Shown: positions 2,870 to 47,700, counted from the stretch's first letter. The stretch is 64,000 nt of DNA from Euglena gracilis (GCA_039621445.1 CP154954.1:3477715-3541714), one strand, 5' to 3'. The notes: a model not told the origin generated them from the sequence alone. Numbers and translations: made by a program.

Positions 2870-2949
2870 GGGGGTTTGTACTGCCGCAGGCCGGTGAGTG
2901 TGAGGGACTCCGGAGGGGCGTCCAGCCCGAGGGAGGGCCGCAGGTGGCC
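2870..2949 (-). CDS. Exon GHLRPSLGLDAPPESLTLTGLRQYKP(P)
   Basis: aag| acceptor; followed by GCC-CAG non-conventional 5' end. Confidence 0.7.
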
Positions 2950-5900
2950 CTTCGGGGGGGACAGCGGGGCGACAGTGGGGCCCCCCAGCCCCCCGAGGAG
3001 TGGCGAGGGGGGCCGGTGGAGGATCGGGAGGGAGGGATGAGCAGGGCTGGACGGAAAAAAACTGGTGGGCCCCCCAGGGGCCAAACCAACCAACCGAAGA
3101 ATGCCTGAAAACCCCCAAGTGAAACGAACTAAATAATGTGAAAGGCCCTCAAAGAAAAGAAATAGTGTGCACGGAAAACAAAAAACCATGAAAAAGCAGA
3201 AAAATCGTGAATGACAAAATCCCACCGCACAAACGGCCCTGCAACCTAGGGCCCGCCCTGTGGTTTGTGCGAGTCCACCACAGAACCCGCCCGCCCACAC
3301 CCTTCCGCGTCGACACGTCCGCAGAGAGAAGCAGAAGGGCGGGCCGGGGGCCCGCCCCCCCCCAGCCAGGCCCAGGCGGGCCCAGGACGGGGGGGGCACA
3401 GCAACCAACATGCCGGAAGACCCGTCTTTAATGGACCCCGTCCAACAAAGGGAAAAGGGCTGGCGGAAAAAGCCCCCCCCCCCCCTAGGGGCCGGGCGAG
3501 CGACCCAGGGTCGAACCGAAAAAAAAAAAAAAAAATACACAAAAATGCCCAAAACAGGGAGGAAAAAAATCCAACCCACGCAGACCGGGCCCCACCCACA
3601 AAGAACCGGAGTAAAGGACCCCGGGACCACTCAACTAAAAAAAAGCCCAGAACCCGAAGGGCAGAAAAAAATAAAATGAAAAATGAAAAGCGCTGACAAA
3701 AAAAAAAAAAACCCAAAAAGGACGGCAAAAAAAAAAATCCACATCCACAGCCAGGAAAAGAAGAGAGCCAACATGTGCGCACACAAAAAAACCCTCACAG
3801 CGGCACCTGCCCCTCTGGGACGTCCCCTCAGCGAAGCTCGACAAACGCCCCGTGGTGAAAAAGGCTGGGGGAAGGCGCCCCCCCCCCCCCCGGGCCTGCG
3901 ACCAAAGGCCGCACGGTGGACCCAGAAACACGCCCACACAGCACCAAAAGATGGGCCGAGCAAAAAAAACCCCCCCCCCCCCCCCCAAAACACCAACCGA
4001 GCAAAAAAACGCAAAATACCACGCTTTTTGAGCAATGTGTATGTGACCAGCCATGAAAATCACAAAAATCATAAAAATCATGAAATCAGCGGTGAAAAAT
4101 CATTGTGAGATTTTTTTGGCCAGAAAAAAATGTGTGGTTTCCCGCCTGGAGCCGACTGGACCGGCCCCCCGCCTCGATGTCCTTGGTGACGTCCGCGAAG
4201 ATGGTTGCGCCTTCAGGCCACACGCCGTTCCGCAGCAGCTGCAGGGCAGAGTGCGGGCCGGCCGGGGGCCAGGCCCTCCCCGCCAGCCAGGCCCCAGGCG
4301 GGGCCGGCCAGGACGATGGGGATCTGCCGGTACAGCAACTGATTGCTGACCCGGGGGCGGGGCGTCTTTTAACGACCCCGGGGTGCCAGCTCAGAGGCTG
4401 GAAAATGTGGGCTGGCGGGAAAAACGGCTGCTGGCTGCCCCCCCCCCCCTAGGGGTCCCGGGCTGGAGCGACCCAGGGTCGAACCGGGTACCAAAAAATC
4501 AAAAATGAAAAAATGTCCAAAAAAACTGCCAATTTGGCTGGAAAAAAATCGATTATTTGACCCAAATTTGCCCTGGCTGGCCTTATTCCATCCCATTTTC
4601 ACCCATTATTGACCCATTTTTGGCCCATTTTTGCACCTCTGAAAGCGATAAATCCGTTACCGCCCAGTCGCCCGAAGGGCGGCTGGAAATAAATAAAACT
4701 CGAGGGGTGGGGAGGGGATCCCGGGCTGAAAAAGGCTGCTGGCTGGAAAAAGGCTGCTGGCTGGCTGGACCCCCCTGGGGGTGGGGTCAAATTCTCTTTA
4801 GCAACGCCCTGCCCTGGGGTGCCCGCAGCCGCGGGCAGCACTTAAGCGGGCACACCAGCCACACAACGTCCCCAGTGATGCGCAATCACACAAATAATAA
4901 CAAACACAGAGCACGCACATAATATCTGCAAACGCTTGACGCTGTGGTGTGCTGTGCTGTGGCTGTGCCGTGCTGTTGTGAGCCGTGGTGTGGTGTGGCG
5001 TGCCACGTTGTGCCGCGGCAGTGTCGTGTGCCGTGCTGTGCTGTGGTGCATTGTGCCGCGTTGTGCTGTGGCTGTCTTTGTGGAGCACGACACGCCACAG
5101 CACGGCGCACCACGGTGCGTGAATGGCCGAGGCACAGCAGGGCATCGCCTCCCCCCCCCCCCAGCCGGGGCGGAGGTCCTTGCGGCATTCCACCAGCTCC
5201 CCAGCGACGCGGTGGTGCCGGCTGCGCACGAGGAACTGCCTCGGGTGTTCCATGTTGTGGGTGCGGCTGTACAGCCGCGCCGCGACGGAGTTGATGTGGA
5301 CCCGCCCCCGGGGCCGCCCGGGGGGTGCGTTCGTGTGCCCGCAGAGCCCTGGCTGAGACGGCGGACAAAACGGCGCGTCAGTTTGAAGCGGGGGGAAAAA
5401 GAAGTGACCCCTGTGGGCTTCCTGCAGGGGGGGGGGGGCAGACCTGAACCACCCCAAACGTTCCACCGGGCTTTGCCTCAGAGTTGGCTGCTGGTTCTGG
5501 GGGGGGGGGCGGTGCACCTCGTCCGTGACACACAACACTTTGTAGCTGACCGCCGAGGGGGGGGGGGCGGATTCGCTGGAGGTCAACGCAGAGTTTGGGG
5601 GGAAGTCAGCCGGGTGGAAGCCCCAAAGAACCCCGACCTGAACAGTGGTGTGGCACAGAAGAAGGGACGCCTGGACGCCTGGTGGACTGAACGTCCCGGC
5701 CAGAAGTCGATGGGGAAGGGTGGGAGCGTGGGAGTGTGCTGGCTCGGGGCAGGGCTGTCTTCCTTGGCACCCCCCACTGCGGCGCTGTTTGATTCTCTCC
5801 CCCCCCACTCTGTCCATGAGATACGTTAGGGCAACCAATGAAGTTAGGGCGTTGGACTCCTCGCACCCGATTGGTTGTTTTGCGTCTTTGCCACTACTTC

Positions 5901-44700: not shown

Positions 44701-47700
44701 GCACGTTCTGCACTGCTGTTCCCCGGCCCGCAGGTCAGGTAGTTTTTGCACCATCGGTTTGGCAGTTAAGCGTATCAAATTGCGCAAACAACCTGCGACT
44801 GTTGGACACTTTTTCTGCAACAGTACTGTGTTGCCAGAATTCAAAATTTGGAACCTGGAATACCCAGGATGCGTCAAACCGGGAATCTGTTTTCCGGTGT
44901 TCGCCATCGTGTCTCCTCATTTCTCCCTTAGAAAACATGCAACGCACCAGCTTTGACACATAACTTGTGGGGGGCAAGTCCCACTGCTTTCATGCAACCA
45001 ATCGAGTGGTAAAGGTTCAACAATTCCTGCAAATAACGGGTGTTTGAGGGCTACGTTTCTCCGGCTGCTGGTTGCCATGAACTGCTGGTTGCCATGAACT
45101 GGCACCACGTCGTCCCCCAGTCTCACGCCCCAGTTGCGGGGAATAACGTGGCCGCTGACAGTGGGTGCTGTTGCTGGGGAGGTGGATGCCGGCTTGGTGG
45201 GCGCTGAGGCATCAGCAGCTGATGTGGCTGCAGCAGCGGAGCCCAAGCCGCGGGCTAGCGGCAAGGCCTTTGGGATCCTGAATTGGTGCCGGCGGACGTG
45301 CACCGTTATCGGGGGGCTGCGTAACCACCTTCAGGAGATCCTCTCTCAACCATTCCTGGGACCTGTCACTACAGTAGAATTGGCCCCCTAATACCTGATG
45401 TTGGGGAAGATGGTATGCTCGTTGGGGTTGAACCCTTCAGAAGCCAGTGAAGGTGGTTGTTGCAGGGCCGAGTGGTGTCGCTTCATTGGCAATTCATTTG
45501 CGCTAAAGCGCGCGTCACTTTGTTCGCTGGCAAATAAGTGCAAATGAACCACTTGTGAAATTTTGGAATTTCTGCAACTGTTTCATTTGCTTTTCGTGCC
45601 CACCAACAGCATGACCCATGACAATAGCATGATGGACACATGAACCACCAGCGATTTACCGGCGTTTGACGGTTGTGTATTTTGTCGCATTGAACATAAT
45701 TTTTTTGTGTAGTGTATTTGCGCACACAAGCACAATTTTTGCCTATGGACTGACGCCATTGATAAACAGTATCACAAACCCACCAAATTATATTTCTCGA
45801 CGTTCTACTGGTTCGCGCCATCATGGCCTCTTTGTCACACTGTTCATCAACGGTGTCAGTTCATGAGCGCTAAAGCCCAACCCTTGAAGGACAAAATATT
45901 GTGTTTATGGGTGCAAATGAACGCACCAACATATTGTGTTACTGCGCCTGTTTGCGCCCATGAACACAATTTTGTTCTTCAAGGGTTGGGCTTCTTCTTC
46001 CGGGTTCTTTGCAACAAAACTGGTTGTGCGGATCCTGGGCATAAGCGGGAGACACCCGTCCCTTTCATCCCCTGTGGACCCTATTTCTTCCCCCCTGCAC
46101 ATCATTTGCCAAACCCCCTGCACCTACCTTCCTTACCCTACACCCTTCACCCCATCCTACACCCTTCACCCTACACTCACACACTTTGGCACTCCGTGGC
46201 CACACTTTGCAAAATGTGTCAAAAACACCACACCAAGGAGCTGCAAGGAAAGCAATCCGGCAAACACGCAGGACACACACTGCCGGCAGTTCAGGTTCAC
46301 CCGGGGAAACAGTTGAAAAGAGCAAGAAGGGCAGTAAAGGCCCTGTTCCTTTGCGGCTTTTTTTGCGTCTTTTTCACTCCCAGGGAGGAAGGTTCCGGGG
46401 AATCGACGTGCGGAGCCCATTTCCAGAACCCCAAAACACCATTTTTGACCAAAGTCCCAGTGGTACAACCCCCAAAAAACAGAATTTTGCTCATTTTTTG
46501 CATTCTCTTGTCACCATGTTTTCAAACCCCCCCCACAGCCACACAGCCGAAATAAATATTTTTGTTAATTTGCGCATGTGCGCAAACCAACACCAAAAAA
46601 GCTCAAGTGCGAATCCGGCCGCCTAAGCCTGACCTGGGGGGTCCTGCGGACCTGCGGGGGTCCTGGGGGGTCCTGGGGAAGAAATTAGCCATGACTCGTT
46701 GGGGTGCCCCCCCCCCCGATGGCGGGAGGCCGTGGTGGGAGACGCCCCCCCCCCCGGCCCCCGGGCCTGGGCGGGGGTTTGTACTGCCGCAGGCCGGTGA
46801 GTGTGAGGGACTCCGGAGGGGCGTCCAGCCCGAGGGAGGGCCGCAGGTGGCCCTTCGGGGGGGACAGCGGGGCGACAGTGGGGCCCCCCAGCCCCCCGAG
46901 GAGTGGCGAGGGGGGCCGGTGGAGGATCGGGAGGGAGGGATGAGCAGGGCTGGACGGAAAAAAACTGGTGGGCCCCCCAGGGGCCAAACCAACCAACCGA
47001 AGAATGCCTGAAAACCCCCAAGTGAAACGAAATAAATCATGTGAAAGGCCCTCAAAGAAAAGCTTTTTGAGCAATGTGTATGTGACCAGCCATGAAAATC
47101 ACAAAAATCATAAAAATCATGAAATCAGCGGTGAAAAATCATTGTGAGATTTTTTTGGCCAGAAAAAAATGTGTGGTTTCCCGCCTGGAGCCGACTGGAC
47201 CGGCCCCCCGCCTCGATGTCCTTGGTGACGTCCGCGAAGATGGTTGCGCCTTCAGGCCACACGCCGTTCCGCAGCAGCTGCAGGGCAGAGTGCGGGCCGG
47301 CCGGGGGCCAGGCCCTCCCCGCCAGCCAGGCCCCAGGCGGGGCCGGCCAGGACGATGGGGATCTGCCGGTACAGCAACTGATTGCTGACCCGGGGGCGGG
47401 GCGTCTTTTAACGACCCCGGGGTGCCAGCTCAGAGGCTGGAAAATGTGGGCTGGCGGGAAAAACGGCTGCTGGCTGCCCCCCCCCCCCTAGGGGTCCCGG
47501 GCTGGAGCGACCCAGGGTCGAACCGGGTACCAAAAAATCAAAAATGAAAAAATGTCCAAAAAAACTGCCAATTTGGCTGGAAAAAAATCGATTATTTGAC
47601 CCAAATTTGCCCTGGCTGGCCTTATTCCATCCCATTTTCACCCATTATTGACCCATTTTTGGCCCATTTTTGCACCTCTGAAAGCGATAAATCCGTTACC

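Follow-up and report, generated by a model that had tools for sequence, protein, structure and literature searches.

How are the exons of a Euglena gene to be joined when most of its introns lack GT-AG borders, and do transcripts bear out the borders drawn? The question is raised by a 64,000-nucleotide stretch of Euglena gracilis DNA (GCA_039621445.1 CP154954.1:3477715-3541714), the whole of which was analysed and is called the window here. A reading made by a model from the DNA alone (the sequence-only reading) had placed in it one gene, at 2870-46772, spliced by two systems. Protein colinearity, joints in RNA and a published splicing code lead to another answer. The window is very probably Euglena (gracilis-type) nuclear DNA carrying two incomplete, near-identical copies of a soluble-adenylyl-cyclase-like gene, whose introns are mostly nonconventional with a few of the GT-AG type. 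Positions are counted from the first letter of the window, and statements cited from papers draw on excerpts of their text.

A soluble-adenylyl-cyclase-like gene in two partial copies

The window is G+C-rich and the gene lies on its minus strand. The exon at 23601-23792, used as a query, retrieved two transcript-derived proteins, P0001 (eukprot EG_transcript_2591, 912 aa, 95% identical to the window exon) and P0002 (GGOE01062244.1.p1, 786 aa, 82% identical). We take these labels to be those of Euglena gracilis and a close relative. RNA runs of the same species label match the exons at 95-100% identity.

P0001 matches structures of human soluble adenylyl cyclase (sAC, ADCY10) in the PDB in two stretches (phmmer, E 3.6e-9), a likeness to ADCY10-type enzymes, in which two class III cyclase domains are followed by a P-loop NTPase region. 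Unlike in those enzymes, the Pfam scores of P0001 are below the curated cut-offs (Guanylate_cyc 19.1 bits against 21.9, AAA_16 21.5 against 32.6), and the window holds the gene from the second cyclase domain onward, the first domain being absent. The product is thus predicted from similarity to be sAC-like, its second cyclase domain leading into a P-loop NTPase region and a long C-terminal part.

By tblastn, residues 411-912 of P0001 are colinear with 28363 to 7760 on the minus strand, and similarity to P0002 extends to 2848 in this copy, copy B. In a second copy, copy A, P0002 similarity runs from 46903 to 34068. Residues 1-410 of P0001 gave two chance-level matches in the whole window, in unrelated places (E 0.067 and 0.087), and low-complexity matches only in 28300-34200 at E up to 50. 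As these residues are not encoded in the window, both copies in it are partial: copy A extends from beyond 64000 to about 34000, and copy B from about 28300 past position 1. The C-terminal third of the gene lacks a same-species protein reference. No protein homologues were found for the exons at 5173-5301 and 40645-40773, a blank that is weak evidence in itself.

The two copies lie on a direct repeat of ~43 kb, of which self-blastn shows about one and a half units in the window:

1-3159 = 43897-47062: left arm of the repeat, 99.2% identity, 16 mismatches, 9 gap columns
4023-20978 (copy B) = 47062-64000 (copy A): second block, 97.5% identity, 166 mismatches, 153 gap openings
28794-28806: 13 consecutive N, lying past the 3' end of copy A and ahead of the first exon recognisable in copy B

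The 863 nt at 3160-4022, within intron I19, are present in copy B and missing from copy A.

Intron borders

No splice-site motif was presupposed in setting the borders. Between neighbouring exons, all cuts that give back the reference protein were tried, after which all nucleotide-equivalent ('slidable') positions of each intron were listed and checked for GT/GC-AG and AT-AC. About 25 introns interrupt the coding sequence; 22 of them have fixed borders, and three more (I23-I25) lie near the 3' end of copy A. In the list below, the last entry of a line names the evidence, and the code is the published splicing code described further on.

I1, 25244-28180, minus: GT-AG, 2937 nt, C-rich tract before AG; P0001
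I2, 24498-25165, minus: nonconventional, 668 nt, CAG/CTG, fits code, 3 slide positions, none canonical; P0001
Exon between I2 and I3, 24457-24497, minus: 41 nt; present in P0001
I3, 23794-24456, minus: nonconventional, 663 nt, CAG/CTG, fits code; P0001
I4, 20460-23612, minus: GT-AG, 3153 nt; P0001
I5, 19462-20296, minus: nonconventional, 835 nt, off-code AAG at +4..+6 (CAG in copy A); RNA
I6, 18902-19410, minus: nonconventional, 509 nt, off-code GAG/CTC within a 7-bp terminal helix, GAGGGAG/CTCCCTC; RNA
I7, 18047-18828, minus: nonconventional, 782 nt, GT start, CC end, CGG/CCG, fits code; RNA
Micro-exon between nonconventional I7 and I8, 18017-18046, minus: 30 nt; RNA contigs and reads
I8, 17818-18016, minus: nonconventional, 199 nt, not slidable, starts with C, CAG/CTG, fits code; RNA
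I9, 13637-17753, minus: GT-AG, 4117 nt, long C run before AG; RNA
I10, 12790-13497, minus: nonconventional, 708 nt, off-code, CTG opposite CTG with a central mismatch; RNA
I11, 11684-12684, minus: nonconventional, 1001 nt, GT start, CC end, CAG/CTG, fits code; RNA
I12, 10216-11634 (slidable to 10214-11632), minus: nonconventional, 1419 nt, CGG/CCG, fits code; RNA
I13, 9690-10151, minus: nonconventional, 462 nt, 7 slide positions, CAG/CTG, fits code; P0001 and the loose end of an X9 contig
I14, 8969-9553, minus: nonconventional, 585 nt, off-code; P0001 only
I15, 7836-8899, minus: nonconventional, 1064 nt, off-code; P0001 only
I16, 6672-7688, minus: GT-AG in copy B, 1017 nt, AG changed in copy A; P0002
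I17, 5304-6576, minus: nonconventional, 1273 nt, CGG/CCG, fits code; P0002
I18, 4253-5171, minus: nonconventional, 919 nt, CCG/CGG pairs yet off-code; P0002
I19, 3000-4171, minus: probably nonconventional, 1172 nt, contains the 863-nt stretch; P0002
I20 (copy A), 42610-46772, minus: 4163 nt, non-GT-AG by homology, off-code; P0002 only
I21 (copy A), 40786-42485, minus: GT-AG, 1700 nt; P0002
I22 (copy A), 36909-40644, minus: probably nonconventional, 3736 nt, CAG/CTG code fit at these borders (outside the eight code-fitting introns counted below); P0002
Last exons of copy A with about three introns (I23-I25), 34068-36854, minus: several conventional and code-fitting border candidates; weak P0002 similarity

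GT/GC-AG and AT-AC are absent from every slide position in 17 of the 22 fixed introns (~77%), which are therefore nonconventional; the sequence-only reading had put these at ~10-12, or ~40%. The other five (I1, I4, I9, I16, I21) have GT-AG in their slide sets, with a clear C-rich tract before the AG in I1, I9 and I21. None of the 17 ends in AG, and none shows a C-rich tract with an AG after it. For the borders of I2, I3, I14 and I15 the support comes only through the transcript-derived P0001, and for those of I17-I20 and I22 only through P0002.

Several particulars of the sequence-only reading hold at this level. The three introns it cited in detail, 23794-24456, 24498-25165 and 5304-6576, are exact in their borders, with P0001 continuous across the first two and P0002 across the third, and none has GT/GC-AG or AT-AC at any slide position. 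Its 41-nt exon, which follows from the borders of I2 and I3, is present in P0001, while a 44-nt exon it also predicted has no counterpart of that length in P0001 or RNA, the only candidate being a weak one near 36371-36414. It further named nonconventional introns of 3.7 and 4.15 kb. The former is I22 and is probably of that type, with a GC-AG alternative given below. The latter is probably I20, non-GT-AG by P0002 homology only and off-code, and this part of the claim was not confirmed; the other of the two introns of ~4.1 kb, I9, is GT-AG with 7 raw reads.

Junctions in RNA

RNA evidence was drawn from the contig sets X1 and X9 and the raw RNA-seq runs X3 and X7, chosen by shared species label, and was placed on 9990-20710. 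All eight introns lying wholly within this interval show joints at the predicted borders, each with at least one raw read, and seven of them are nonconventional:

I5, joint 19461/20304: 7 differing letters; one X9 contig, X7 1 read
I6, joint 18899/19409: slidable by 2; contigs X1 and X9, X7 2 reads
I7, joint 18046/18829: contigs X1 and X9, X3 1 read, X7 1 read
I8, joint 17817/18017: contigs X1 and X9, X3 4 reads
I9, joint 13633/17751: GT..AG with the cut moved by 3; contigs X1 and X9, X3 7 reads
I10, joint 12789/13498: contigs X1 and X9, X3 3 reads, X7 1 read
I11, joints 11681/12685 or 12688: two variants, 2 or 5 differing letters; contigs X1 and X9, X3 1 read, X7 3 reads
I12, joint 10195/11633: 19 letters of diverged exon start; contigs X1 and X9, X3 1 read, X7 1 read

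A ninth joint, that of I13, appears at 10151 as a loose end of one X9 contig running on into the following exon. Nearby GT/GC-AG sites, whose use in transcripts would have told against the sequence-only reading, do not replace the predicted ones in this interval, all seven nonconventional introns being joined at their predicted non-canonical borders. The mixing of euglenid nonconventional introns with conventional ones in one transcript, also part of that reading, is seen directly in RNA joints of both types.

Two observations on variant letters stand beside these joints. The two I11 variants skip 1003 or 1006 nt with different bridging letters, and exon variants at 12713-12746 do not have the bases of copy A. 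Together they suggest that further paralogues or alleles, located outside the window, are expressed.

A splicing code at the intron ends

The code 5'-N3CDG-/-CH'GN5-6|R-exon has been defined by knock-in in E. gracilis (PMC12501133). It was applied here as N3-CDG ... CH'G-N5-6 | purine, at any slide position. Eight of the 17 nonconventional introns fit it (I2, I3, I7, I8, I11, I12, I13, I17), against a chance expectation of 0.05 from random position pairs in the same DNA (Poisson tail 2e-15). None of the five conventional introns fits, and only one of 204 decoys made by shifting both ends by 15-60 nt does so. Eleven of the 17 show strict Watson-Crick pairing over 3 bp between +4..+6 and the code positions, where 1.75 are expected.

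In I2, I3 and I17, respectively, positions +4..+6 read CAG, CAG and CGG and positions -8..-6 read CTG, CTG and CCG, in line with the pairing that the sequence-only reading had described for its cited introns. The motif it named (CAG at +4..+6, CTG at -8..-6) agrees with the published descriptions as excerpted. Its statement that each such intron starts with a purine fails on I8, an RNA-confirmed and unslidable intron that begins with C; in the published code it is the downstream exon, and not the intron, that opens with a purine (PMC12501133).

Relation to known euglenid introns

Excerpts of genome-scale studies give a close frame for these numbers. In E. gracilis 16,151 of 28,337 introns (57%) are nonconventional, with lengths up to 5,931 nt, and 43% are conventional; the nonconventional consensus is CCAGG at +3..+7 and CCTG at -9..-6, and the conventional introns carry a C-rich tract (PMC11170887). 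In E. agilis 71.8% of introns are nonconventional and 84.4% are slidable, and of the nonconventional ones 61.2% fit the code and 38.8% do not (PMC12501133).

The nonconventional introns of the window share with this class the absence of GT/GC-AG borders, sliding caused by short direct repeats, CAG or CGG set against CTG or CCG, a purine opening the next exon, lengths of several kb, and a place in the same transcript as GT-AG introns. Nothing categorical sets them apart. Code fit is 8/17 (47%) compared with 61.2% across the E. agilis genome, and the off-code introns include I6 with GAG/CTC and I10 with CTG opposite CTG. The conventional introns I1, I4, I9, I16 and I21 are GT-AG like others of E. 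gracilis, with the C-rich tract noted above in three of them, but they form a minority here (5/22) compared with 43% genome-wide. I7 and I11 resemble the 'intermediate' or hybrid euglenid introns, which combine canonical borders with nonconventional pairing, in having a GT start together with a nonconventional motif pair; unlike those they end in CC and not AG. No intron here has both GT-AG and the code, so the hybrid class is not represented, and GT-starting introns of this kind are counted as nonconventional in PMC11170887.

The nonconventional introns are missing from the RNA exactly where the borders were predicted, and about half of them carry the genetically defined signal, in which three free bases precede C-D-G at +4..+6, the complementary C-H'-G stands at -8..-6, and the next exon starts with a purine. 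Following published accounts, the two motifs would pair and draw the intron ends together, a dedicated machinery would cut there, and introns of the conventional type in the same transcript would be left to the spliceosome. Where the two types are neighbours, the conventional intron is the first to be removed (PMC6221363). The sequence-only reading had called the machinery not identified, and the papers as excerpted describe it as unknown and presumably spliceosome-independent.

Strength of the evidence

Several results count against this interpretation or narrow it. At the intron ends, nine of the 17 nonconventional introns do not fit the code, and 26 of the 204 decoys likewise show strict 3-bp pairing there, which makes pairing alone weakly specific in this G+C-rich DNA. 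Folding of 10 nt from each intron end, joined by U7, gives true ends a mean of -9.63 kcal/mol compared with -9.0 for mismatched 5' and 3' ends, which is not better; the medians are -9.6 for nonconventional introns, -6.1 for the five conventional ones and -8.7 for mismatched 5'/3' pairs. The specific feature is the positioned motif, not the stability of a 'hairpin'.

The evidence also differs along the gene. Reads were placed on 9990-20710 only, so the borders of I1-I4 and I14-I22 come from protein colinearity alone, and the reference for I16-I22 is P0002, which is 40-75% identical there. The P0002 match that places I19 is weak. For I20 a code-fitting border pair exists that would change 9 codons, and for I22 a GC-AG alternative at 36906-40638 costs one extra residue.

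Within the RNA interval, several joints carry 2-19 letters beside the joint that differ from the window. These variant letters differ from the bases of copy A too, which means that other paralogues or alleles contributed part of the RNA. The RNA shows that the homologous junctions are used; it is not tied to expression of copy B itself.

Finally, exons of the two copies contain 1-2-nt indels that break the reading frame, whether one copy is compared with the other or both with RNA. Between the copies they occur in the following exons of copy A:

Near 55680-55790
Near 54700-54750
Near 49690-49740
Near 48330-48350

RNA reads insert a G after 10192 (5 of 7 in X3, 3 of 4 in X7), where copy B is one base short, and the acceptor AG of I16, present in copy B, is changed or lost in copy A. 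Both gene copies may be pseudogenes or imperfectly assembled, or their differences may be allelic.

The off-code introns include I5 (in copy B), I6 and I10, which are supported by RNA, and I14 and I15, known from protein only. A second, code-independent mode of recognition acting in the same transcript, perhaps via longer or shifted helices, could account for them, an idea we consider rather unlikely. In I5 the near-identical copies differ exactly at +4, the base being C in copy A, as in the code, and A in copy B.

Alternative explanations

It is quite possible, if somewhat less probable than a real tandem duplication, that the two copies are one locus, or two alleles, assembled twice and joined across the run of N. 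The 13 N between the copies, the lack between them of 5' exons for residues 1-410 of P0001, and gap openings about as numerous as substitutions over 17 kb (153 and 166), many of them in homopolymers or short repeats, all favour a doubled assembly. Against it stand the 863-nt indel and local sequence replacements between the copies, as well as an identity of 97.5%, lower than a mere duplicate made in assembly should show. The ends of the 863-nt stretch were checked for the nonconventional-intron motif and none was seen there, nor any obvious terminal repeats.

A separate question concerns the machinery. The spliceosome might itself remove the nonconventional introns through unusual recognition, terminal pairing being only a guide and no separate machinery existing, which we regard as improbable. 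Noncanonical splicing can be spliceosome-dependent in other species (PMC11170887), two introns of this locus, I7 and I11, start with GT, and the energy of terminal pairing does not stand out in this set. The excerpted papers lean the other way on the machinery, as described above, and the absence of an AG end or of a C-rich tract followed by AG from all 17 introns speaks against this view.

Far less credible is the suggestion that the non-GT-AG borders are artefacts of aligning a paralogous protein with a decayed or mis-assembled copy while real transcripts use canonical sites nearby. References that are 95% (P0001) or less identical, frame-breaking indels in both copies and RNA that stems in part from other paralogues lend it something, but all seven nonconventional introns in 9990-20710 have RNA joints at the predicted borders with raw reads for each, no slide position is canonical, and the positioned motif occurs in 8/17 against 0.05 expected.

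The original model of a single ~44-kb gene running from 46772 to 2870 with about 27 introns, ~40% of them nonconventional, is equally hard to credit: exons similar to protein do lie all along this span on one strand, but 2870 and 46772 mark one and the same exon end, once in each repeat copy, so the span is exactly one repeat unit and strings together the 3' part of copy A and the middle of copy B, the exons at 42608 to 34068 follow those at 23780 to 2848 in P0002 where the model puts them upstream, and the 13-N run and 5.7 kb with no homologous exons lie between the parts.

Further features of the window

Pentanucleotide and TG/AC microsatellite arrays, and their copies, lie inside introns:

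9780-10032
20685-20895
37635-37803
16401-17305
42321-42485

A pentanucleotide repeat occupies 9873-9984. Rfam returned no matches. At 13570-16433, inside the conventional intron I9, RNA-type contigs pile up to a summed word depth of ~8,400 compared with tens on exons, with many variants and internal joints and no Rfam matches. This stretch resembles a family of dispersed repeats, or some other element present in abundance, within I9. In X3 an 'opposite strands' joint at 10461/15034 and long poly-G/poly-C loose ends at 10475-10478 and 15034-15131 are most likely homopolymer-tract artefacts.

Implications

The two partial sAC-like copies form an ordinary example of a Euglena locus. Mixed intron types are the normal state of Euglena genes, known at genome scale, and no new kind of splicing is involved; the rarity implied by the sequence-only reading is at odds with published work as excerpted, in which both intron types in one gene are the norm. 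As the splicing code has already been defined genetically (in the excerpted PMC12501133), the locus carries little weight as a discovery. Its value is as a worked case, with eight junctions supported at read level, among them those on either side of a 30-nt exon that separates two nonconventional introns. It also shows that a tandem repeat can circularly permute a gene model drawn by eye. If a second recognition mode did exist, the two copies would be a natural mutant pair for testing it. More generally, gene finders based on GT-AG will miss most exon joins in the Euglena genome.

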